Positions 13,182 through 24,423 of a stretch of DNA of 24,423 nucleotides are shown here, piece by piece. A program made the translations under genes and the position numbers. Source of the stretch: an uncultured Pseudomonadales bacterium (lineage in GTDB: Bacteria; Patescibacteriota; Microgenomatia; UBA1400; UBA12108); contig CAZBML010000001.1 of assembly GCA_964493295.1 (NCBI GenBank), positions 4,078 through 28,500 on the forward strand, in the 5' to 3' direction. The notes beneath the pieces were generated by a model, which saw only the letters and a list, made by a program, of their open reading frames with translations, made no database searches and was not told the DNA's origin. Position 1 is the first letter of the stretch, and the number at the start of each line of letters is the position of its first letter.

Positions 13182-13257
13182 ACAACTCCTTTGCTTATTA
13201 CTATAGTTCCAGTGTATTGATTATTGAGGGTGGTGTCAAGGCAGGAAAGAGGGATAT

Positions 13258-13701
13258 TTAGAACGATTTTTTGCGTTTGGATCTAGCTTGATTGGTTCGC
13301 TGGTAGTGAGCGCTCCAGTTGGTACCTTTTGGGGGTAAAAGATGATCAATTTTTTCTTCGATTTTGTCAAAAAAACTGCGGATTTTTTCGACCCTGAGCA
13401 TGCGATCCACGACTAGTTGGTAGCCGTTGTTTTTGCCTTTGAGGGTGAGACTAATTTTGTTGACCGTGCTCAAACCTACTTTGAGGGTACCCACAATGCT
13501 CCTTTGGGAGTAGCCCTTTTTGATCATGTAGGCGATCGCAAGCCGCTTGCCGAGCATGATTTGCTCGGTAGGAGACAAGAGGTCCTCGACAAAACTACTG
13601 ACTGCGTCCCTCGAGCTCAGGCTCGAAAGTGTAGAAATAAACATCTCAAAAATCTGACCAGAAACTTTGGGTGGCAAGTATTTGCGTGAAACTTGTGACA
13701 T
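13258..13701 (-). CDS. TrpR/YerC/YecD-like helix-turn-helix regulator
   Basis: DLLSPTEQIMLGKRLAIAYM...G.SQRSI...LKVGLSTVNK; SD GGAGG upstream. Confidence 0.85.
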   Translation of the reverse strand: MSQVSRKYLPPKVSGQIFEMFISTLSSLSSRDAVSSFVEDLLSPTEQIMLGKRLAIAYMIKKGYSQRSIVGTLKVGLSTVNKISLTLKGKNNGYQLVVDRMLRVEKIRSFFDKIEEKIDHLLPPKGTNWSAHYQRTNQARSKRKKSF

Positions 13702-13730
13702 ATAAAACCTCCATCGTAACGAATATTTAT

Positions 13731-13762
13731 TATGCTACCATGTTCTAGAACATGGTAGCATA
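13731..13762. promoter_or_regulatory. Perfect 32-bp palindrome over the predicted -10 of the TrpR-like gene (putative operator)
   Basis: TATGCTACCATGTTCT|AGAACATGGTAGCATA. The minus strand reads TTTACA-18 nt-TACCAT, with TG just upstream of the -10. Confidence 0.8.
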
Positions 13763-13786
13763 GGTAAAAGTGTGTTGTAAAGTAGG

Positions 13787-13813
13787 TGCTACCGTGTTCT
13801 AGAACATGAGAGC
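13787..13813. promoter_or_regulatory. Second, imperfect copy of the palindrome
   Basis: TGCTACCGTGTTCT|AGAACATGAGAGC; its centre is 54 bp from the first copy's centre. Confidence 0.75.
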
Positions 13814-13834
13814 GGTGGGGAGGGAGCAGGGGAG

Positions 13835-13905
13835 AGGATTTAGGAAGTAGGAAGGCAGGATTTAGGAATTAGGAGTTAGGAAATAGGAATTAGGATTTAA
13901 GAAAG
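13835..13905. repeat. Heptamer array, about 10 units (AGGAWWT)
   Basis: aggattt aggaagt aggaagg c aggattt aggaatt aggagtt aggaaat aggaatt aggattt aagaaag. Confidence 0.9.
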
Positions 13906-14029
13906 GGGAGACAGGAGAAAGAGTCGGGGGACTGGTCGAAGTAGATCGAAGTACCTACTGAGTTGACGGTAGGCGGCGAGGTGGGAAAAGCAGACACAGG
14001 AGGAGGGCGGCGAAGCGACAGAGTGGCTG

Positions 14030-14036
14030 GTATACT
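14030..14036 (+). promoter_or_regulatory. Extended -10 promoter TGgTATACT, 8 nt before the ATG at 14045
   Basis: ...ggcTGgTATACTaaagaggtATG. Confidence 0.65.
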
Positions 14037-14044
14037 AAAGAGGT

Positions 14045-17000
14045 ATGGCCACAATCAGTGTAGATCAGTATAACGACGACGGGACGACTAGTAGAACTGC
14101 AGGGGAAGCACTGACCATAAATGGCGCCACCTTTACCCAGCGCACCGACACTAGATGGCACGCGACGGCGCCCGCCAGTATGACGGGTACTTACGGCGAT
14201 ATTCTCCCCAGTGCTACCCTAGGCGGCCGAATGGTGATTGACGCGACCGCTGTGCGCTGGCTCGCCTATGACAGCGGGAGTGGGAACGTGCCCGCGATCG
14301 GAACCGATATCACCCAGGCGGGCGTGAGTGCGAGTTATCTGCTGGGAGTTTATGCCTCGCTGACCTCGGCGCCCACGACGGTTGGTAATGCGATGCCGGC
14401 CACAGGATACCTCAAGTTTCGCGAGGTAACGGGAGCGTTTGTGAGCGGAGCGCTCACTGGGATTGGGGGCAGTGCAACTGGCGCGGATACTGCCGGGTGG
14501 ATAGAAGTTGTCATGGACAGCGCCGCTGGGACCGACATTAATATCCCTCGCCTGGGGGAGTTTGAGACGCGAGGCAAATGGTTTTACCTGGATAATACCG
14601 ACGGGACGACCGCCCAAGTCTTGCAGGTGCCAACTAATGGGGGAGGAGCCACTACTCACTCCCCAGGGGTGTGGATCGAAAAAGCCACCGCTAGCGCGGC
14701 TACTTATTCGCTATCCGGTAACACCGTGACCGTGACCCTAGCGAGCCACGGTTACTTTGTGGGTGACGACATTGATATCAACTTTACGAGCGGGGGAGTG
14801 TCTGGTGAGGACACCTACCATATCCTGACTGTCCCTACTTCATCGACCTTTACGGTAGCCAAAACGGCTAGCAACACCAGTGGCAACTGTAGTGTCTCAC
14901 AATTTGAGTACTATCCGTCCTCGGCCGGGGCCACGACCGGGTGGAGTCAATCTCACATCGGGAGCCCGGGACTGGACGGAGCGAATGATGATCTGCGCCA
15001 AAAATTTGTCAAAAGTATCGGGACGGGACAGATGCAAATAGGGGAAAATGCCACTCAGTCCGCCACTTATACGACTGCATCAATTGCCGGGACTTATACC
15101 TGGACGGCCAACGTCGTGACGGTGACCTCGACGGCGCACGGTCTGCGGGTAGGGGAGCAAGTATATCTCGACTTTACCAGTGGGGGCGCGACGCCCGACG
15201 GGGTCTATACGATTGTGACCAACGCGGCCAATACTTTTACTGTGGCACTAAGCGGATCTGGTACCGCTGGTAATGTGACTGTCTGGGCAAGGAGCACCGT
15301 AACTTTTACGGCGCACGGCTATGCCATTGGCAACAAAGTACACCTCAATTGGACGAGTGGGGGAATAAGTACTGATGGAATTTATCTGGTGGAGACGGTG
15401 CCCACGGCCAATACTTTTACCATTAATACCTATACTAATTCAGGAACCGGGGGAAATGTGAGTATTGAGATGACGATCGGGTATATCCCCCCCGCTGGAC
15501 TAAGAACCAGGGTACCCAATATCTTCTTGAGGCAGTGTGCAACCGGCAGTCGGGCCACCAACGCGGCGCCCAATGCCACGATTACCACGCGACCGGAGTT
15601 TATTACAACGAGCGCGGGGGCAATTGATATTGAGTACACCTACGGCGATTGGTACTTTAACTTCCTCCAGCCGTACTCGGTCCACCTGAATCACGTGGCC
15701 TCGTTTGACTCGATCTTGATCCAGGAGTGCGCAACAGCGCTCGACATTAATGACACCAGCTTGTCGATGTATGGTTCCCTCGATATTAATACACTCAACT
15801 GCGCGTCAAATTTTGCGGGGGGAACGATTGCAAATTGCACTTTGGTGCGGGGAAATGCTCCAGGGTCTAGCGATCATGGTATTGTGATTACTTCGTGTAA
15901 AGATTTGGATCTAGTGAATGTAAAGGGGGGTATCCTCCAGTTTGCCCGCAGTACCGGGTACTCGTTTGTGATTACCAGCTGTAATAATGTAAGTCTAAGC
16001 AGGTGTGTGAGCACCAACTCGACGACGATCTCACTCGTGACCTCGAAAGACATTACGATTAGCGATCTTAACTGGGTAGATCGGTATATGGGGATGACCA
16101 ATGCCACGGCGTCCTCCTATTGTGTGACCATTGGGGCAGGGATAGTAAACACGGTGATTGATGGCATTACTTTTGGGTACGGCGGGATAGTGAGCGACGT
16201 CCACCCGTATGCGGGACTGGTGTCTTTTACGGCGACGGTCAATACCACGATTCGTAATGCCGGTAGTCGCAGTAGCATGCTGAGTGGAGGGAGTATCCCC
16301 CTGTGGAGGATGGGTATTTTGTTTGTGACGGGAGGGAATAACGATACGGTCAAAATCCAGCGGATTTACATCGAGAGTTTGACGACGCGCGCGGGGATTT
16401 TGACCCAACTTAATACCGATACCGGCATCACCATGGAGTCGGTGTTTAACTATCGGTATACCACGGCGGCGGGTGTGGCAACCGATTACACTGTGACACC
16501 TTTATTTCTCAATGCAACTCACAAGGGGGTTGGGGCGGCGCTCAATAGTGTTAGTCCGCAAGTTTCGGTCTATGGTACTCACTGGATGGATCTCTTTACA
16601 AGTGACACTACAGGTAGGGTGGTAGCGATCATGAATGAACCGACATCCGCCACGGTGAACTACAGTACTCTCACGATTGCTGGGCTTGGAGGTTTTACGT
16701 CGGCTGGTTCACTATCTCTGCAATCGGTTGGTGATGAGTATATCCTTGAGTGTCCGTACTGGATCTTGGGACATACAGGACTGAGCAATACCACAGCGAC
16801 GGTAACGGGAACCAACGTGACTTATGTGAGTGGACCCGATTATGGCAACCATGATATTTACTACCAAATCGATACGGGGAGCGGGTGGAATGGGAGCTGG
16901 AAAGACTTGAGTGGTACAAATTTAAGTGGCGAGTCGGTGAGTCCAACCGGATTTCGACTTAAGTTTAGGGTGGTATGTGATAATGCGGCCACCACCAACG

Positions 17001-17548
17001 CAATTTCTTTTATTCGTATAGATACTACTACTAGCGCCACTGCGCAGGCAGAAAATCTCTATCCACTTGACTTGGCTAGCGTGACGATCAACAACCCCGT
17101 GATTGGTTCGAGCTATGAGGTCTACAACCTTGATACCCAGACTCAACTACTAAGCGGGGTGATTACCAGTGATCCTCAGACAGTATCTGTCTTGGCATCG
17201 GCTAACCAAACACTACGGGTTCGACTTCGACGATCTAAAGGAATTTTACTTTATACAGCTCAAACCGCTAATTTTGCGATCGGCAATATCTTGGCAGGGG
17301 TGACGAGTGGGGCGACCGCATTGATAGCTAATGATAGTGATAACGGAACGTCGGGAAGTTTGACGCTCGAAAATATTGTGGGCATATTTCAGGATGGGGA
17401 GACGATTGTGGATGATGGGGGAGGCAGTGCGACTACAAGCGGAGTGGTAGGGGGTAAATATCTACCATTTGAATCAAATGCGGTAGTGAGTGAATTGCTA
17501 ACTGCCAGTGTCTATGCCAGTCAAGTAGTAGACTCAATCGCGGTCTAA
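14045..17548 (+). CDS. Giant Thr/Ser/Gly-rich modular protein A (probable beta-helix core, phage-structural-like modules, no signal peptide)
   Basis: 1167-aa ORF; three H-G-x-x-x-G-D/E/N-x-V small beta modules; Asn/Thr-rich beta-helix-like repeats (ITSCKDLDL, ITSCNNVSL); C-terminus paralogous to 19576..24423. Confidence 0.85.
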   Translation: MATISVDQYNDDGTTSRTAGEALTINGATFTQRTDTRWHATAPASMTGTYGDILPSATLGGRMVIDATAVRWLAYDSGSGNVPAIGTDITQAGVSASYLLGVYASLTSAPTTVGNAMPATGYLKFREVTGAFVSGALTGIGGSATGADTAGWIEVVMDSAAGTDINIPRLGEFETRGKWFYLDNTDGTTAQVLQVPTNGGGATTHSPGVWIEKATASAATYSLSGNTVTVTLASHGYFVGDDIDINFTSGGVSGEDTYHILTVPTSSTFTVAKTASNTSGNCSVSQFEYYPSSAGATTGWSQSHIGSPGLDGANDDLRQKFVKSIGTGQMQIGENATQSATYTTASIAGTYTWTANVVTVTSTAHGLRVGEQVYLDFTSGGATPDGVYTIVTNAANTFTVALSGSGTAGNVTVWARSTVTFTAHGYAIGNKVHLNWTSGGISTDGIYLVETVPTANTFTINTYTNSGTGGNVSIEMTIGYIPPAGLRTRVPNIFLRQCATGSRATNAAPNATITTRPEFITTSAGAIDIEYTYGDWYFNFLQPYSVHLNHVASFDSILIQECATALDINDTSLSMYGSLDINTLNCASNFAGGTIANCTLVRGNAPGSSDHGIVITSCKDLDLVNVKGGILQFARSTGYSFVITSCNNVSLSRCVSTNSTTISLVTSKDITISDLNWVDRYMGMTNATASSYCVTIGAGIVNTVIDGITFGYGGIVSDVHPYAGLVSFTATVNTTIRNAGSRSSMLSGGSIPLWRMGILFVTGGNNDTVKIQRIYIESLTTRAGILTQLNTDTGITMESVFNYRYTTAAGVATDYTVTPLFLNATHKGVGAALNSVSPQVSVYGTHWMDLFTSDTTGRVVAIMNEPTSATVNYSTLTIAGLGGFTSAGSLSLQSVGDEYILECPYWILGHTGLSNTTATVTGTNVTYVSGPDYGNHDIYYQIDTGSGWNGSWKDLSGTNLSGESVSPTGFRLKFRVVCDNAATTNAISFIRIDTTTSATAQAENLYPLDLASVTINNPVIGSSYEVYNLDTQTQLLSGVITSDPQTVSVLASANQTLRVRLRRSKGILLYTAQTANFAIGNILAGVTSGATALIANDSDNGTSGSLTLENIVGIFQDGETIVDDGGGSATTSGVVGGKYLPFESNAVVSELLTASVYASQVVDSIAV

Positions 17549-17556
17549 TTGCTTGG

Positions 17557-17970
17557 TTAAAGTTGGCTCTGGAGGAAGTCTTTGCCGTGCTTGGACATGT
17601 TCATGAGAAAGGTAACTTTGTGGACAAGATCACTCAAACTCAGATTGCTTTTGACGATATATTCTCCCGCTCCCAAGGAATATCCTCGATCGATGTCTTT
17701 GTCAGTCTCTAAGTTGCTTGCGATCACGACCGGGATGCTTTTCCATGTTTCGTGTGCTTTGATTTCGGAGAGTACATCAAAGCCACTCTTGTGGGGAAGA
17801 AGAATATCGAGGAGGATGACTTGAGGGATATTGGTTTTGAGGATTTTTAGAGCCTCGAGCCCGTCTCCTGCAATTGTGACCTTGAATCCAACCGAGAGGA
17901 ACTTGTCACGCATAGTGCTAGCGAGGAGTGGATCGTCTTCTACAATGAGGAGATGTGGTTTTTTGGTCAT
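17557..17970 (-). CDS. Single-domain response regulator (receiver only)
   Basis: MTKKPHLLIVEDD, DGLEAL, PQVILLDILLP..SGFDVL, IPVVIASN, GA.EYIVK. The ATG at 17970 lies 4 nt after the kinase stop; the track start at 18048 is an overlap artefact. Confidence 0.95.
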   Translation of the reverse strand: MTKKPHLLIVEDDPLLASTMRDKFLSVGFKVTIAGDGLEALKILKTNIPQVILLDILLPHKSGFDVLSEIKAHETWKSIPVVIASNLETDKDIDRGYSLGAGEYIVKSNLSLSDLVHKVTFLMNMSKHGKDFLQSQL

Positions 17971-17974
17971 ATGA

Positions 17975-19579
17975 TTATGATACCTCATTTGGCAGGGAGA
18001 GGGTAAAGATGGTACCATCCTTGTGACTGGTATAGGTAATACTACCATTGAGTTTGGTCATAATTAATCTGGCTAAATAGAGACCTAATCCATTGCCGTC
18101 GGGGTGATGTAGGCGAGCGTTGTCGCCGCGATAAAAACGTGTAAAGAGATGTGAGCTGTTTTCACTTGGTATCCCGATCCCTAAGTTTTTAATGCTAATT
18201 TGTAACTGCTTTAAACGGAGATAGATCGTGATTTCGATAGGTGTATTGGGATCGGAGTACTTGAGTGCGTTGCCAATGACAACTAGGAGCGCTTCTTTGA
18301 GTAAAAGTGGGTCAGTTGTGACTAGAGTTGTTGCTGGAACTTTCCAGTCCAGTTTGATTGAGCGTCTTCGCAAATAACCAGTTTTACTCTCATGTACAAC
18401 GGGAAGAATTAGTTCTCGTAGGGAGATTGATTTGAGGTGTGGAATAAGTGAGCCGGCTTCCAGACGTGAAATATTTAGTAGCTGTGAAGTGAGTGTGATA
18501 AGGCGCAAGGTAGTGGAGTGAATTTTGCGTAGGGTGGTGCGAACTTTGAGATGGTTTTGGGACGGCTCGACATCGAGCAGAGATTCACTCAACCATCGGA
18601 TAGCAGTCAAGGGTGAGCGGATTTGGTGGGAGGCCAGACTGACAAACTCATCTTTTAATTTGTCGATAGATTCAAGGGTTTCGATCTGTTTGACGATTAA
18701 GACCTGGCCTATTTTGTACGCTAAAGCAAAGGAGATTGCGGTAATGCTCAAGATGGTGAGTAGGCTCACATACAATGAGTTGCGTACAGCAGTATAGATC
18801 TGATATTGGGGAGTTCCTACCGCAATAAAAGTGCTACGACTATCGTCGAGTGCCGTAAAAGCATAGAGGCGCTCAACTTGATCGATACCGACTTTGAGGG
18901 TTTGACCGCTTCCTTGAGTCAGGATTTCTTGGACGAGTGGATCGTTTGCAAAATTTTTCCCCAACGCTTCTGGAGTTTGGGGACTACGGGCCAAGACAGT
19001 CCCATCACGATCTAAAATATTGATCACTAAACTACTGGTTTTGTTTAGATCATTGACAAATGTGCTGACCCAGTCCAGGGACAAGGAAGCATAGACTAAT
19101 TCGGTGGAAGAAATGGGGTAGGCAAAATTGATGACAGCTCCACTTGGTTTAGTTTGATAATAAGCTCCGACAGTAAATGACCCACTGCTAAGTGTTTCGG
19201 CGATTAGTTTTTCATGAGGGGTATTTTGCTGAGCTTTGGCCAGGTTGGCGGCACAGCGTACGTGACCACTACTGTCGACGATACCAAAATTTTCATAGCG
19301 GATATAGCTCGAAAGCAATGTAGCGAGAAAAATGGAACAATTTTCTGGGCTTTGGCTGGTTAGTGACGTACTGGCGGCGATCGCGATGAGTAGTTGTCGT
19401 ACACCTTCGGTGATTTGCTTGTGTTGGGCGGCTGTTAAGCGAGCAATTTCCGATAATCTAGTCAGCTCGTTGTTTTTTTTGATTTGTAGATTTTGGTAGT
19501 GCGAAAATCCAGTGTAGAAAATAAAGGGGATGGTAGTGATGATAACGAGCAAATAAAGTCGAGAACGAAGGTTTCTCAT
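17975..19579 (-). CDS. Sensor histidine kinase (TM, Cache-like periplasmic sensor, TM, HisKA, HATPase_c)
   Basis: H-box EFVSLASHQIRSPL, N-box GNALKYS, G1 NLGIGIP, F-box LFTRFYRG, G2 GNGLGLYL; sensor has Cache-like GIVDSSGHV, ILDRDGTVLARSP and GIDQVERLYAF. Confidence 0.95.
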   Translation of the reverse strand: MRNLRSRLYLLVIITTIPFIFYTGFSHYQNLQIKKNNELTRLSEIARLTAAQHKQITEGVRQLLIAIAASTSLTSQSPENCSIFLATLLSSYIRYENFGIVDSSGHVRCAANLAKAQQNTPHEKLIAETLSSGSFTVGAYYQTKPSGAVINFAYPISSTELVYASLSLDWVSTFVNDLNKTSSLVINILDRDGTVLARSPQTPEALGKNFANDPLVQEILTQGSGQTLKVGIDQVERLYAFTALDDSRSTFIAVGTPQYQIYTAVRNSLYVSLLTILSITAISFALAYKIGQVLIVKQIETLESIDKLKDEFVSLASHQIRSPLTAIRWLSESLLDVEPSQNHLKVRTTLRKIHSTTLRLITLTSQLLNISRLEAGSLIPHLKSISLRELILPVVHESKTGYLRRRSIKLDWKVPATTLVTTDPLLLKEALLVVIGNALKYSDPNTPIEITIYLRLKQLQISIKNLGIGIPSENSSHLFTRFYRGDNARLHHPDGNGLGLYLARLIMTKLNGSITYTSHKDGTIFTLSLPNEVS

Positions 19580-22500
19580 AACGCGATTTGATCAGGCGAT
19601 TGGCTGACGTAAACTGCTACTCCCGATGAGTTGACGGTGGCTTGTGTTTCGAAGGGAATGTATTTGGGGCTCGCAGAGGCTTTGCGAATACGAATCATGA
19701 TGTTGTAATCGGCAACGTAGGGTACATTGGAGATCGTTACCGTATTGCTACTGGCTATGCCACTACCCAACAGGGTACTACTAGCTAGATTGTAAACATA
19801 GTATGTACTGCCCGAGACTACATTGGTTAAGACGATCGAGACGGTCTGGCCAGCGTAGTCGCCGGGGCCGACTGTTTGCGTGTAGATTTCTAGGCCGTCG
19901 ATATAAGAGTTAAAGGAGGGGAAGAGCGCGAATTGAGTGTTGGTGGCGACGTTGGTGGCGCGAGTGGTGGTGTTACCTGAGTCACGGATAATTTCGCCGG
20001 GGAAGAAAGTACCAGTGACGTTGGAGAGAATGATAGTACCGGTTGTGCCTAAATCATAATCTTCATCCACTACAGCCGTCGCACCGGATGTTTGGCCGAG
20101 GATGGTCTCCCCGACCACAAAACTACTGGACTGACTGGTGTAGAGCATACCGGGACGAGCCGTGAGCTTGAGTTTGAGATAAAAACCATCGGTCGTGTTG
20201 ACCGATTCGGCGGCCAAGTTGGCGGGGGTGGCGGTTTGATAAGCTGAGTAACCACTGCCTTTGTCGAGCGAGTACTCGACTAGGAGTGACTCGAGGATAT
20301 CGGTGTTTGAGCCCAGGTCGAGACCACTTTTTTTCATGGTTTTGTCGCGGAAACCAGAGACGCCAAAAATCTTGTAGGGCCAAGTGATCTCGATAGAGTC
20401 GCCCGCGGTGCGCATGTACAGACGACCCGAGTTGGAGAAAGCGGGTGACCCAGAAATAATCTCGTAGGGTGGAGTGTCAGAAGAACTGGCGTTGAAACGC
20501 AGTGATAATTCTCCAGTATTTGGTGAGGTATAGAGCTCGTGGAACATGGTGTCATAGATAGTAGTAAAGGCAACGCCCATTCCGTCTGTCGTGGTGCCGA
20601 TCGCATAAGTAGTAGCAGTGGTTAAGGGCTCGGAGTTGGCACCGCTGACCCCTTTCATAATCACCCCGAGGGCAGAATTGGTGGCAGAGGTGTAGATCGG
20701 CCAGTCATAGTTGTCAAAGTTGATGTTGGAGAGGGTGACACCGGAAGCGTTGTTGGCAAAGGTAAAAGGAGTCCAAGTGGCGATGTAGTTGCGCCAGCTT
20801 TTAACGGTAAAGTCGTCAAAAACATTGTCGTTACTCAAGTTTTGCACGTTGATGAGGGAGGCGGTATGACCTGCATAAGTAAAGTTGACGCTGTGATCAA
20901 AGAAGCTATTGTTAGAGGAGCCGGTCAAGGTGAGGTAAGCACCGGATAAACCACCCGCGCCAGCCTGAGAAACAGAAGTAATGCGATTGCTTGAGGAGTT
21001 GGAGAGTGAGATGGGGGCTATTGATCCAGGCATGACAGCGTAGCCCACGCGGTTGGTGTCTGAGGGGGTAAAGCCACTGGTTGTACCCAAGTAAATCTCT
21101 GTATAGTGGGTGCCGGTGGGGGTGGCGGCTAGGGTGAGCTCGATACCCTGGTTGTGATCGTTGCCACCAGTTGATCTACCCCAAGCATAGGCGGCCGTGA
21201 GCTCGTGGCTACCTTGGGCGAGACTAGCGCCAAAGATAATCCCGGTAGAAATTGGCCCCTCGGCAGTAAAAGGCTGGGCGGGCGTGATAGTTAAAACGGT
21301 CGTTGCTACGTTGGTGACCAAGTAAGTGCCATCGTTGCTAGTCGTACCAGAAACGACAATCACGTCATTGGCCACAAAACCATCGGTTGTAAAGGAACCC
21401 GAACTGGCGGTGATAGTGTTTACAGTGCTGGCGGTTGCGAACGTCAGGGTACGTCCACCACTACCAGTTGCGAGTTTGGTGGTGGTATTGGTGACAGGAG
21501 CCAAGGCAGTACTGCCCAAGTTGACCATGGCGGTTGCGGCGTAGATATAAGCACCTTGAGTGTTTAACTGGATGGTAAAGGTGTGAGTGGTGCTAGTTGA
21601 GGTAAAGTTGAGCGAGATCCTCTGCCATTTGCCGGTTGCGGTGAATGACTGGGTGACAGGCGAAGTAGTGTTGACGGCGATCTCTCCGCTGACCGTGGTT
21701 TGGTGCGGGTAGGGATCGGTCATGACATAAACCGAGAAAGTGTAGGCCGTGCTAGTTTTGAGGTTGGCGAGCGTTTGGACGGCTTTGCTACCTGGGCCTA
21801 CCGACAAGAGACGATCGGCCAGACCGGTGGGGGCCGCGTTGCTCGAGAAGGCAATATCGAGAGGGGCGACACGAGCGGCCGCGGTTGGAGTCAGGTTGGT
21901 TTTGACCCAGTTGGCATGGGTAAAGTCGTCTGATTGAGTCAAGTAGTTGAAGGCAGGGGTGGGGAGGGCGACAACGGGGACCTCGACTTCGGGGCTTTCG
22001 GTGCCGTGCATAAAAGTGATGGTTTGACCGGAAAAAGTAGCCAGGAAGGGAGTATCCACCGTAATTGAAGTGGCAGAGTCCACGGAGACTACCGTGGTGG
22101 GCCAGGCGATGCCGGGACCATAAACACACATGCCAGCGCAGGCTCCGAGCGTCAAGGTCTGGCTGACAAAAGTCGAGGTGTTGACAGCGGAGACCGTGAT
22201 TTGCCAGGGAGTGTCGATTGAGACTACGGTGGCACTCGCCCCGACACCGGTACCGGCGATTTGGAGACCAGGCGTGACGTTGCCGGATAAAAAGTTGGCG
22301 GCGGAACCCTCGGGGATGCGGATTTTGTTTTCGCCACTAGTACCTTTGCAGTTGGCGATGGTACCAAGGCCGGTATTAAAGGATCCCGAGGGGATAGTGA
22401 GCGTAGTACCCCCCGCGGTACCGGCGGCGTTCGTAATACCGGAGAGCGCGGAGTCGCATTTGAGTAGACGATAGTAGTAGGTGGTGTCGTTGCTTGGGGC

Positions 22501-24423
22501 TTGGCCATTTAACGTGCCAGAAGTGAGGGCGGCGCTAGTCGTGAGATTGGTGTGATTGGTCGTGAGGGTAATGACTGTGGCGGTGAGCGAGAGGATCATG
22601 TATGTGCCGTTGTTGCTAGAAAACCCAGAGGCCACGATATTGGCGCCGATCACAAAGCCGTCAGTGATAAAAGAGCCCGAGCTAGCCGTGATGGTGCGAC
22701 CAGCCTGGTTGAACGTAATGGTTCTGCCACCCGCGGCTGTGGCGGTTGCCACATAACCGTTGGTGTAGGCAACGACAGTGTTGGTCGGCGAGTAGAAAAT
22801 GCGCGAACTACTATCCCGCGTAAAGCCAGGAGTAGTCCCGCGGAAAATTGTATAGGCTATGGTAGTGGAGGTGGGGTCGCGGCGCACCCAGTTGAGAGTG
22901 ACAGCGCGGGGACCGGAGTTGATCGCCGAGAAAGCTTGGGGGAACCATTTACTGCCGAGGAAAGGAGTTGCGGAGTAGGTGCGCGACTCGTAGTAGTGAG
23001 TCCGGTCGGTCCAGTCGCGGAAAGCTCTAGTTTTGATGTAATATTTAGTATCGTCAACGAGCTTGGCGCCGAGCGTGGGGTTGTTGCCGAGGCGATAAGC
23101 CGAGGCCACGTTTTTGTAGCCATTGAACATGTCCTCGGACCAAGTGATATTGGAGATGGTGTTGCCGCTACTGACGCCGAGGAAAAAAGGGGCGAGGCCG
23201 TAGCTTTCCATACCAGTGATCGTGTTGTTGTTGAACAAGGTAGTTAAACTAAGAGCCGCTTGGAAGTTTTTGCTAATATTTAAACCGTAAAAGCGAATAT
23301 TCGTCCAAGTAGAGCCCTCGGTGTTGGTGACGTAGAGAGCGGCACCTGGGGCGGCGACCGTCGAGCCGGTTTGGTTGGCGTGGAGCGCTAGGGGCTGGCC
23401 GACCGCGACGTTTAGATCCGAGATCGTGGCGTCGTTGATGTAGCTCCAGGCATTGGTCGAGGAGTTGCCGTAGCGAGTGTCGCGAGTAAACCAGCCATTA
23501 CTCCCGATCGTGGCCGAGGCCGTGTAGTACCTACGCACCGGTTCGAGGGCAAAGCCAACACTCGAGATGGTGAGGCCATAACACTCGGTGATCACGGGCG
23601 GGAGAGAGAAAGCGCAGTTGGTGAGGGAGACACTTTCGGCTTGGGTAAAGGTGTTGTACGACTCGTCGAATAAACAGATACTGGCAGTGAGCGAGCCACC
23701 GGCCGTCATGACCATGTTGGCTCCCACAAGGCGAGAAGATGTCTGGATATTGGCGGGCACCGCAGAAGTAAACATGATGTTGGGACAGCGGACTTTGGCA
23801 CCTGTTGGGACTTTGTTGCCGTTGACCCCGTCGCCAAACTGAACAGTGTTGGTTAGTTGGGAGACGTAGGGGTTGAAACAAGTGAGGGAGACATCGGTCG
23901 GGGTACCGGTCCTGACTGTCCAGGTAGCGCCAGAATCGGTTGAAGTCATGGCATAACTGCGCAAGTTACCAGAGCTTGAAACTGCTACGAGGGTGGTGCC
24001 ATTGGCGACTACGCTAGTCCAGCTCCCGATCTGAGTACCAGTCAAAGTGGTGGTCGTCCAACTGGCACCGTTCGTAGATCTAGCCGTTTGGGTCGAGTTG
24101 GTCGTAGAGACTACCACAAAGTTGGTGCCGTCCCAGGCTACGCCACGACTAGTCGAGTTGGGGAGGGCGCCACCGGCACTAAAGGCACCGGTTGTGGGAT
24201 CCGCTTTGCTTTGATTACCGGTAGAGGAGCCAGAGATCGCCATCCAGATACTCCCGTTGTAAATGAGTGCCATGTAGGTGGCGCTAGTTAAAGTGGCTCC
24301 CGCTGTCCAGGTGCCAGCGCCATCGGCGTCGTAGTTGCTGGCAGTACCGGTCCCGACCGCGACGTAGCGAGAGCCTCCGTAGGCCACGGCATTCCAGATC
24401 TGCGAAGTGGCCATGGTGGCGGC
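19576..24423 (-). CDS. Giant modular protein B (paralog of A; propeller-like repeats, beta-helix, FN3-like and CBM-like inserts), 5' truncated
   Basis: Frame is open to the window edge (gcc gcc acc atg). Contains WNAVAYGGSRYVAVG/WTSVVANGTTLVAVSS repeats, FN3-like VTLNW...YTIFRG...TTYYYR and NYLTQSDDF...W. Its stop overlaps the kinase start (ATGA). Confidence 0.88.
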   Translation of the reverse strand, partial: AATMATSQIWNAVAYGGSRYVAVGTGTASNYDADGAGTWTAGATLTSATYMALIYNGSIWMAISGSSTGNQSKADPTTGAFSAGGALPNSTSRGVAWDGTNFVVVSTTNSTQTARSTNGASWTTTTLTGTQIGSWTSVVANGTTLVAVSSSGNLRSYAMTSTDSGATWTVRTGTPTDVSLTCFNPYVSQLTNTVQFGDGVNGNKVPTGAKVRCPNIMFTSAVPANIQTSSRLVGANMVMTAGGSLTASICLFDESYNTFTQAESVSLTNCAFSLPPVITECYGLTISSVGFALEPVRRYYTASATIGSNGWFTRDTRYGNSSTNAWSYINDATISDLNVAVGQPLALHANQTGSTVAAPGAALYVTNTEGSTWTNIRFYGLNISKNFQAALSLTTLFNNNTITGMESYGLAPFFLGVSSGNTISNITWSEDMFNGYKNVASAYRLGNNPTLGAKLVDDTKYYIKTRAFRDWTDRTHYYESRTYSATPFLGSKWFPQAFSAINSGPRAVTLNWVRRDPTSTTIAYTIFRGTTPGFTRDSSSRIFYSPTNTVVAYTNGYVATATAAGGRTITFNQAGRTITASSGSFITDGFVIGANIVASGFSSNNGTYMILSLTATVITLTTNHTNLTTSAALTSGTLNGQAPSNDTTYYYRLLKCDSALSGITNAAGTAGGTTLTIPSGSFNTGLGTIANCKGTSGENKIRIPEGSAANFLSGNVTPGLQIAGTGVGASATVVSIDTPWQITVSAVNTSTFVSQTLTLGACAGMCVYGPGIAWPTTVVSVDSATSITVDTPFLATFSGQTITFMHGTESPEVEVPVVALPTPAFNYLTQSDDFTHANWVKTNLTPTAAARVAPLDIAFSSNAAPTGLADRLLSVGPGSKAVQTLANLKTSTAYTFSVYVMTDPYPHQTTVSGEIAVNTTSPVTQSFTATGKWQRISLNFTSTSTTHTFTIQLNTQGAYIYAATAMVNLGSTALAPVTNTTTKLATGSGGRTLTFATASTVNTITASSGSFTTDGFVANDVIVVSGTTSNDGTYLVTNVATTVLTITPAQPFTAEGPISTGIIFGASLAQGSHELTAAYAWGRSTGGNDHNQGIELTLAATPTGTHYTEIYLGTTSGFTPSDTNRVGYAVMPGSIAPISLSNSSSNRITSVSQAGAGGLSGAYLTLTGSSNNSFFDHSVNFTYAGHTASLINVQNLSNDNVFDDFTVKSWRNYIATWTPFTFANNASGVTLSNINFDNYDWPIYTSATNSALGVIMKGVSGANSEPLTTATTYAIGTTTDGMGVAFTTIYDTMFHELYTSPNTGELSLRFNASSSDTPPYEIISGSPAFSNSGRLYMRTAGDSIEITWPYKIFGVSGFRDKTMKKSGLDLGSNTDILESLLVEYSLDKGSGYSAYQTATPANLAAESVNTTDGFYLKLKLTARPGMLYTSQSSSFVVGETILGQTSGATAVVDEDYDLGTTGTIILSNVTGTFFPGEIIRDSGNTTTRATNVATNTQFALFPSFNSYIDGLEIYTQTVGPGDYAGQTVSIVLTNVVSGSTYYVYNLASSTLLGSGIASSNTVTISNVPYVADYNIMIRIRKASASPKYIPFETQATVNSSGVAVYVSQSPDQIAL

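Follow-up and report, generated by a model that had tools for sequence, protein, structure and literature searches.

The window, the whole 24,423-nucleotide stretch of DNA analysed here (G000:C1:4078-28500), comes from an uncultured bacterium of the Microgenomatia within the candidate phyla radiation (CPR), and its distal part is occupied by two giant genes, A and B, with a two-component system between them. Gene A (14045-17548, plus strand) codes for a protein of 1167 aa with a tailspike-type beta-helix and no signal peptide. A is followed by three minus-strand genes: a receiver-only response regulator (17557-17970; likely start MTKKPH at 17970, the open reading frame (ORF) being open to 18048), a histidine kinase of 534 aa (17975-19579) composed of an N-terminal transmembrane (TM) segment, a dCache-like sensor, a second TM segment, HisKA and HATPase_c, and gene B (19576-24423), whose product of about 2270 aa is present with its C-terminal 1612-1615 aa and whose frame shows no stop before the window end. 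The sequence-only reading, an annotation made by a model from the letters of this stretch, had described A and B as convergent paralogs enclosing a two-component system. The enclosure holds, and two corrections apply. B, kinase and regulator form one co-directional minus-strand array on which A converges, the stop of B and the start of the kinase overlapping as ATGA (19576-19579). In addition, B is cut by the contig end; the last base of the window is also the last base of contig C1.

About 660 N-terminal residues of B are thereby missing from the window. The first 95 residues of the protein were located on contig C113 (286-2), on which three tatA genes and tatC lie upstream of the B N-terminus on the same strand, and B orthologs measure 2266-2300 aa. 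The gap between C1 and C113 falls in a repetitive, Asp-box-like region of B. An independent contig from run X2 spans the junction of kinase and B (18542-20022), and independent assemblies of close relatives display the same order as the window, with A on the plus strand and, pointing towards it, regulator, kinase, B, three tatA genes and tatC. As two relatives carry B on the opposite strand, a misassembly of B was considered and rejected, given that three independent assemblies and the bridging contig show the window order. The source metagenome-assembled genome (MAG) comprises 865 kb in 127 contigs and is 72% complete; near-identical DNA was found in wastewater and activated-sludge metagenomes.

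A and B are true paralogs. All seven motif pairs from which a collinear backbone had been proposed are present in both proteins in the same order, and the proposal is backed by sequence comparison at several levels. By BLASTP, the two proteins are 27% identical over the last 380 aa (E 3e-14); a hidden Markov model of the A family matches B with E 4e-25; and a profile-profile comparison using Viterbi alignments in hhalign places residues 1859-2272 of B (ortholog numbering) on residues 765-1165 of A with a probability of 99.6% (E 4.8e-25). Collinear alignments were also obtained for the N-terminal helix turns of A against B (E 1.3e-6), for the GYIPPAGLRTRVPNIFL / GNKVPTGAKVRCPNIMF segment (GYIPPAG.../GNKVPTG...; E 1.5e-4) and for one more segment (E 0.42). 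A GxxSGATA module of about 70 aa is shared as well (A vs B, E 9e-4), sitting at different backbone positions in the two proteins. A third paralog, C, of at least 879 aa is encoded on contig C14 (3-2639, minus strand) and carries the 70-aa module and the C-terminal tail as in A and B.

The AlphaFold model of A, computed from a 121-sequence alignment, reached a predicted local distance difference test (pLDDT) value of 89 and a predicted template modelling score (pTM) of 0.84. It consists of a single long right-handed beta-helix, followed by a jelly-roll-like sandwich and a terminal sandwich. The helix begins near residue 20-30, and residues 1-215 (14045-14689, plus strand) form its N-terminal turns; this is the most conserved part of the family, with 51-70% identity to phage copies and many nearly invariant columns. 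Three small beta domains of the HG..G..V...FTSGG..DG.Y type are inserted into the helix in the model (residues 216-478; 14690-15478, plus strand). The main beta-helix, as assigned by fold matches, comprises residues 479-860 (15479-16624, plus strand), in which R503, R516, D528, E530, D555, E561, D580, D610, H611, R635, D679, R680 and H720 are invariant or nearly invariant. The jelly-roll-like beta-sandwich with its YQIDTGSGW...GFRLK motifs (residues ~870-1003; 16652-17053, plus strand) is part of the region common with B. The terminal beta-sandwich (residues 1008-1167; 17066-17545, plus strand; strands at 1011-1063, 1142-1147 and 1153-1157) harbors the inserted GxxSGATA module (17237-17449, plus strand), for which pLDDT falls below 50 (residues 1065-1135).

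Searching the PDB with the A model by Foldseek, the top matches were Klebsiella phage depolymerases, a K1 capsule lyase and tailspikes (E 8e-8 to 1e-5). VIA, a Foldseek-independent search, yielded Z scores of 18-21 to beta-helix lyases and tailspikes, and BFVD returned tail-spike and tail-fibre proteins. Since the VIA alignments to solved beta-helices cover residues ~30-860, the conserved first 215 residues belong to the helix; they align to solved helix turns, and a separate N-terminal virion-docking domain was not seen in A. Pfam and PHROGs returned nothing for A, and a PDB sequence search with the A profile and with the 70-aa module gave nothing useful. Some A homologs show a faint match to PF12195 End_beta_barrel only, and no Pfam match to the C-terminal chaperone Peptidase_S74 was obtained in A or B at E 0.1. 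ESM Atlas hits to residues 1-300, with scores of 0.84 or below and E1_FCCH-like clusters at 0.84, are leads only. A three-copy complex prediction restricted to residues 845-1167 of A scored 0.00 and counts neither for nor against a trimer.

For B, residues 420-1615 were modelled with a pLDDT of 84. The model contains the same C-terminal domains as A, matches phage baseplate and fibre proteins and reaches Z 10.3 to PDB 7w1c; the beta-helix-like region that had been noticed in the two sequences is a right-handed beta-helix in both AlphaFold models. The C-terminal ~415 aa (19579-20826, minus strand), homologous to A 765-1165, comprise the helix end, the jelly-roll, the GxxSGATA module, the terminal sandwich and the KYIPFE...VYVSQSPDQIAL tail. 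Residues 822-971 (21511-21960, minus strand) form a nested carbohydrate-binding module (CBM) of the CBM4/16/22/61-like type, for which VIA returned many solved CBMs at Z 12-15.6 and rmsd 2.1-2.5 over ~130 residues; the Pfam match to CBM_4_9 (E 1.6e-4) lies under the curated cut-off. A weak 'head protein' match by PHROGs/Pfam concerns a small repeat domain. At the other end, residues 1-218 of the window portion (23770-24423, minus strand) hold, judged by sequence, the last Asp-box-like (SxDGxTW / FVAV) blades and then a helix restart motif, GNKVPTGAKVRCPNIMF, which aligns to A 479-495 (E 1.5e-4). The N-terminal part of B, mostly outside the window, is built of the same Asp-box-like SxDGxTW / FVAV repeats and probably adopts a propeller fold.

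The last ~30 aa of both proteins had been proposed to act as a secretion, assembly or anchoring signal. In the model of A, the tail KYLPFE...VYASQVVDSIAV (17456-17545) makes up the last two strands (1142-1147 and 1153-1157) of the terminal sandwich. The C-termini of the family share the pattern [GK]Y.P ... S.P[VI].Q..DR.Y, and this includes phage-contig proteins such as P0043, from an IMG/VR viral contig. As the tail provides the last two sandwich strands and its pattern also occurs in phage members, it is predicted to be a structural element of a family-wide terminal domain and not a cell-specific secretion or anchoring signal; that proposal is not supported.

The A family is mainly a phage family and rare in cells. 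At least 779 homologs were counted in a metagenomic protein collection, and A homologs occur in 65 IMG/VR loci, none of which (0/65) has a kinase or regulator nearby. At locus L040, TerL, portal and three small genes precede the A homolog, and protease, scaffold and major head protein follow it; at L006, terminase and portal lie next to the A homolog. Jumbo-phage contexts are provided by L074 (196 kb; gp32, RecA, split terminase) and L091 (189 kb; capsid, Gp80). Two A-homolog records are CheckV-complete (100%) phages, one of them with terminal repeats. The L012 record (G781) is a CheckV-complete 100.5-kb phage with terminal repeats that carries an A homolog; its Terminase_6N match (94805-95392) is interrupted by two TAG codons in frame, possibly a sign of stop-codon recoding. 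Many phage loci have a homolog of C next to that of A. Among the other genomes sampled, the conserved N-terminal 220 aa of A turned up in none of 400 from across the phylum and in a single one of 400 from across the class. A pattern-limited scan of 185,579 species genomes, with a 15-row alignment as query, returned three loci in cells, along with two contigs of phages that had been binned into unrelated MAGs.

The surroundings of A and B are cellular. The first 13.7 kb of the window (1-13.7 kb) contain ordinary cellular genes (SIMPL, 23S-IVP-type, LeuRS, ComEA, split ComEC, PrsW-like, RibD_C-like and TrpR-like), and no phage gene was found among these other ORFs; the initial observation that capsid, terminase, portal and integrase are missing from the window is thus correct. 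An ATP synthase gene lies near an ortholog locus. Judged from ORF tables annotated in part, prophage genes are absent from ~50 kb around the ortholog in G401 and ~60 kb in G403, so that the neighboring DNA in relatives does not turn out to be an ordinary prophage tail operon. Terminase_6N, HK97-type capsid and sheath gave no match in the five A-bearing genomes, one of which is 97% complete. Apart from the fibre genes, no structural counterpart of viral-locus ORFs was found in the own genome, and the genes that it has in common with phage loci are generic (sugar dehydratase, ThyA, integrase, clamp loader).

These data bear on the idea that A, B and C arm a particle encoded elsewhere, be it a tailocin, a gene-transfer-agent-like particle or the virions of a helper phage that are retargeted in a satellite-like manner. 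The phage homologs of A do sit in virion modules beside a C-like partner, and cellular and phage copies agree closely over their N-terminal 215 aa, as expected for docking to something conserved. However, sheath, capsid and terminase were not found in the five genomes, and the conserved N-terminus is the helix itself, with no separate adaptor domain. It is moreover conserved across ~50-kb HK97-type and ~190-kb jumbo phages. We consider such a particle highly improbable.

The two-component system shows clear Pfam matches (HisKA E 6e-11, HATPase_c E 7e-21, Response_reg E 7e-20), the kinase having a dCache-like domain and a TM segment at residue 269. The regulator measures ~137 aa (orthologs, 129-143 aa) and is receiver-only, as Pfam detects no DNA-binding output domain in it; in relatives, there are two such receiver-only genes. 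An A-type gene adjoins a dCache kinase in each of the five cellular lineages, namely the own genome, G401, G402, G403 and G746. G403 (Shapirobacteria) has the gene order of the window, G401 and G402 (Levybacteria-type) carry B on the opposite strand, and in G746 the A-type gene overlaps the kinase start. The five genomes are only distantly related, with LeuRS identities of 41-50%, and the kinase of the window shares no more than 31% identity with those of G401, G402 and G403. The suggested co-location of A and B with a sensory system is upheld, the link being kept in five cellular lineages. The refuting condition set for it, homologs confined to phage genomes and never beside this two-component system, thus comes out in its favor: most homologs are phage-borne, but the cellular copies always lie beside the kinase.

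Comparison with the close relative at L087, whose A is 86% identical at the amino acid level, gave dN/dS ratios (nonsynonymous to synonymous substitution rates) of 0.06 for A, 0.12 for B, 0.08 for the kinase and 0.10 for the regulator; with dS near saturation, these ratios are rough but far below 1. A and B are under purifying selection. They could in principle be an inert prophage tail-fibre remnant, or a moron, that came to lie beside an unrelated two-component system by chance, and a family that is overwhelmingly phage-borne and very rare in cells, together with an IS200-type Y1 transposase gene near A in G401 and G402, would fit such an origin. This explanation has very little to recommend it in view of the intact ORFs (1167 and ~2270 aa) with dN/dS of 0.06-0.12, the ATGA coupling of B to the kinase gene, a neighborhood kept in five lineages with LeuRS identities of 41-50%, and five genomes in which no terminase, capsid or sheath gene was found. 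With no prophage around them, purifying selection and a conserved two-component link, the proposed domesticated tail-fibre or spike homologs in a cellular chromosome are upheld, and A and B are best explained as cellular genes kept by selection and descended from phage tailspike or tail-fibre genes.

The histories of the individual genes differ. When 55 A-type sequences were placed in a maximum-likelihood tree, the seven copies from cells were scattered over at least four positions among those of phages, and at least 4 changes are forced by the tree. Constraining the cellular copies to one clade costs 390 log-likelihood units (approximately unbiased (AU) test, p 3.5e-9). The nearest relatives of the A copies of G403 and G746 by BLAST are phage sequences. 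The placement of the G402 copy is ambiguous, as it groups with a jumbo phage in the tree and is 49% identical to the G401 copy over its full length, which suggests a mosaic. The window proteins A and B are 72% and 69% identical to those of G401, whereas LeuRS is only ~50% identical. In a close relative (A 83%), the position of B is taken by a 2543-aa protein (L089:7352-14983) with 35% identity over 20% of its length. On the grounds of polyphyletic A alleles, nearest relatives in phages, a replaced B and discordant identities, the locus behaves as a fixed site at which spike genes get replaced. Between near relatives, the second spike has been replaced wholesale (L089), and, with the kinase at 31% and A/B at ~70% identity to G401, parts of the locus have different histories.

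A more far-reaching version, which we regard as tentative at best, is that cells and phages share one pool of spike genes and that a fixed kinase-side 'socket' in a Tat-linked cluster has repeatedly swapped alleles from it, displaying them as sensor-coupled spikes. In another reading, the cell makes copies of the spikes of its own phages, which would destroy or mask the receptor glycan or act as decoys in the manner of superinfection exclusion, under envelope-sensing control. Cell alleles do track phage alleles (polyphyly, nearest relatives in phages), the patchy distribution over genomes is usual for defence genes, and defence-like genes, so called by sequence alone, lie near the ortholog locus of G401. 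On the other hand, the other fibre-like proteins and the Tat genes, which are conserved without A, look like a surface apparatus, and no phage locus is tied to these hosts. We know of no such spike-based defence system and judge an anti-phage role to be unlikely.

The genes of the twin-arginine translocase (Tat) are linked to the locus beyond the own genome. TatC occurs in 38 of 401 class genomes in comparison to all five A-bearing genomes, and it lies beside fibre genes in the own genome, L087, G401, G402 and G403. Seven of the 20 TatC neighborhoods fetched from other genomes hold cluster genes beyond TatC, counting the PrsW-like gene, the SH3 membrane protein, two small membrane proteins and fibre-like proteins. 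The 438-aa Beta_helix protein and the 969-aa/C-like protein occur together in five of these seven. A sixth, G573, combines a 969-like protein with a short 438-like match and with a B of full length, which shares 68% identity with its ortholog in G401. Among the cluster proteins, only A, B and C/969 have matches in viral loci. Contig C113 (1-2415) also carries a 178-aa relative of the 438-aa beta-helix protein.

The absence of a signal peptide or TM segment from A and of a C-terminal anchor from B, which had been read from the sequence, agrees with hydropathy and N-termini in both proteins. The maximum 19-residue hydropathy of A and B is 1.3-1.7, in beta-rich stretches, and the N-termini read MATISVDQYNDDG... 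(A) and MASITIDRSINVDD... (B, from contig C113 and orthologs). A scan of the loci for twin-arginine motifs gave none in A, B, C or the 969-aa and 438-aa proteins; the only candidates were unrelated small membrane proteins. Export of the spikes by Tat is therefore only a hypothesis; they might hitch-hike with a signal-bearing partner or bear an unrecognised signal.

Tat linkage is also relevant to a role in remodelling of the own glycans, in which A and B would act on the envelope or exopolysaccharide of the producing cell (chain length, dispersal) and the kinase would sense the state of the matrix. The precedent is WceF of Pantoea stewartii, a trimer resembling tailspikes that is encoded in the chromosome, bears a Tat signal and cleaves exopolysaccharide (PMC7949094); here, Tat genes are adjacent. 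Copies from cells and phages differ little in the helix core, and if the phages with A homologs infect these bacteria, the substrate of the helix would be their own surface polymer. However, polysaccharide-synthesis genes are absent from the locus, A and B have no Tat signal, and repeated allele replacement together with a divergent B in a close relative fits a changing external target better. Action on self-glycans strikes us as doubtful, though somewhat less so than an anti-phage role.

We therefore return to the reading that A and B are domesticated phage spikes, serving as regulated binders or cutters of glycans at the surface of the cell, to which we assign a probability of roughly 55%. 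The architecture on which it builds is a long right-handed beta-helix of depolymerase type, with small domains in A and a CBM and Asp-box-like repeats in B, completed by a jelly-roll and a terminal sandwich to which the conserved tail would contribute. The gene cluster, which occurs in a subset of Microgenomatia, comprises A, B, the 879-aa third paralog and the 969-aa and 438-aa beta-helix proteins of relatives; it further contains tatC with three tatA genes, a PrsW-like protease and membrane proteins, of which one is large and SH3-bearing and others are small. According to the proposed mechanism, the spikes fold in the cytoplasm, probably as trimers, and would reach the surface or the medium, with the adjacent Tat translocase as the candidate route despite the lack of a Tat signal. 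Outside, they would bind, and probably cut, surface or matrix polysaccharide, most likely on a partner or host cell and less likely on the own envelope. The dCache kinase and its receiver-only regulator or regulators may couple the spikes to an extracellular small-molecule cue, possibly released sugars, and exchange of the spike gene beside the kinase with alleles from the phage pool would re-tune specificity. Taken together, the data suggest that borrowed phage parts serve as a regulated cell-surface tool.

Several observations weigh against this reading. A, B and the third paralog have no Sec signal, no twin-arginine signal and no TM segment. No catalytic residue was identified in A or B, the conserved D/E/H/R columns of the helix being only suggestive. 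The rarity in cells could mean that the A family is a transient mobile acquisition and not a stable cell function. With the own genome at 72% completeness, phage genes may be present elsewhere in it. The target glycan is a guess, because no host call was possible for the phages with A homologs. Finally, in the RNA-seq-labelled mud metagenome X20, a few short 151-nt unitigs match the TrpR-like gene, A and B (13487-13637, 14574-15978 and 20036-20331), several of them identical or nearly so; none covers the kinase or the regulator, and DNA carry-over is possible.

Known systems resemble the locus in part. In the phage depolymerases K64-1 S2-4 (PDB 9k4a), K1 capsule lyase (7w1c), CBA120 TSP2 and TSP3 (6w4q and 5w6f) and LKA1 gp49 (4ru4), a beta-helix is followed by beta-sandwiches, as in A and B. 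The sequence homologs of A in phages are part of structural modules, whereas A and B are chromosomal with no phage around them. A and B further differ from phage tailspikes in having small domains nested in the helix and no separate virion-anchor domain, and in adjoining a two-component system and Tat genes. Hybrid two-component systems of Bacteroidota link a glycanase at the cell surface to a sensor that responds to the products of this enzyme. By a purely functional analogy, the locus may follow a polysaccharide-utilisation logic, with the gene of a glycan-acting surface protein beside a sensor kinase with an extracellular ligand domain; in contrast to polysaccharide utilisation, SusC/D-like transport genes are absent here and the regulator is without a DNA-binding output.

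The MAT (mosaic adhesive trimer) fibres of Bdellovibrio bacteriovorus are phage-fibre-like adhesins on the surface of a predator; they have a signal peptide, a common N-terminal domain of ~130 aa and, in many cases, an S74 chaperone (PMC10769870). Like A and B, they form a multi-paralog phage-fibre-like set with a shared backbone and swapped modules or tips, and they are proposed to recognise surface glycans of other cells in a bacterium living on bacteria. Unlike them, A and B have no signal peptide and no S74 by Pfam, and presumably also lack the ~130-aa domain; MATs, for their part, have no link to a kinase or to Tat. WceF, likened here by fold description, shares with A and B a cell-encoded tailspike-like beta-helix and a terminal jelly-roll or sandwich. 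It has a twin-arginine signal of its own and belongs to an exopolysaccharide synthesis cluster, whereas A and B have no signal and are accompanied by neighboring tat genes, a kinase and fibre-like genes. Cell-encoded derivatives of phage spikes were thus already known; what is new here is the kinase linkage and the swapping of alleles at a fixed locus, of which we found no description in the literature.

Other features of the region are as follows. A TrpR-family gene (13258-13701, minus strand; Pfam Trp_repressor) is divergent from A and occupies the same place in the relatives L089 and L090, making it a second candidate regulator of A besides the two-component system. The SH3-bearing membrane protein of 846 aa is encoded within 1-13.7 kb. 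A promoter and terminator scan of 13200-24423 gave counts at shuffle level and is uninformative. On contig C14 (3-5755), the third paralog is preceded by small genes for a 157-aa 'xIxDINGxxRxC..PDPxYPG' protein, a 172-aa membrane protein and proteins of 374 aa and 213 aa; this set, in which no protein belongs to a Pfam family, recurs by A or B in G401, G402, G403 and G003. Two genes upstream of A, G401 (L002:8793-9425) and G402 (L003:8498-9142) carry the IS200-type Y1 transposase-like gene, relatives of which are present in the own genome on C16 and on C1, on the latter just upstream of the window.

Little is known of the means by which the ultra-small CPR bacteria recognise other cells and keep hold of them, and hardly any of these bacteria is in culture. 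The locus described here, a conserved chromosomal site at which phage receptor-binding genes are reused, maintained by selection, replaced time and again and linked to a sensor kinase, is a concrete and testable candidate for a recognition device. With their confident in silico folds, the spike proteins lend themselves to expression and to assays on glycans. The locus also sharpens the question of whether Tat exports signal-less fibres of phage type in these bacteria. The sharing of alleles with phages offers a route to predict partners or hosts: if the tentative notion of a common spike-gene pool is true, and if the donor phages infect the host of the symbiont, the spike allele would report the host of each uncultured CPR lineage.

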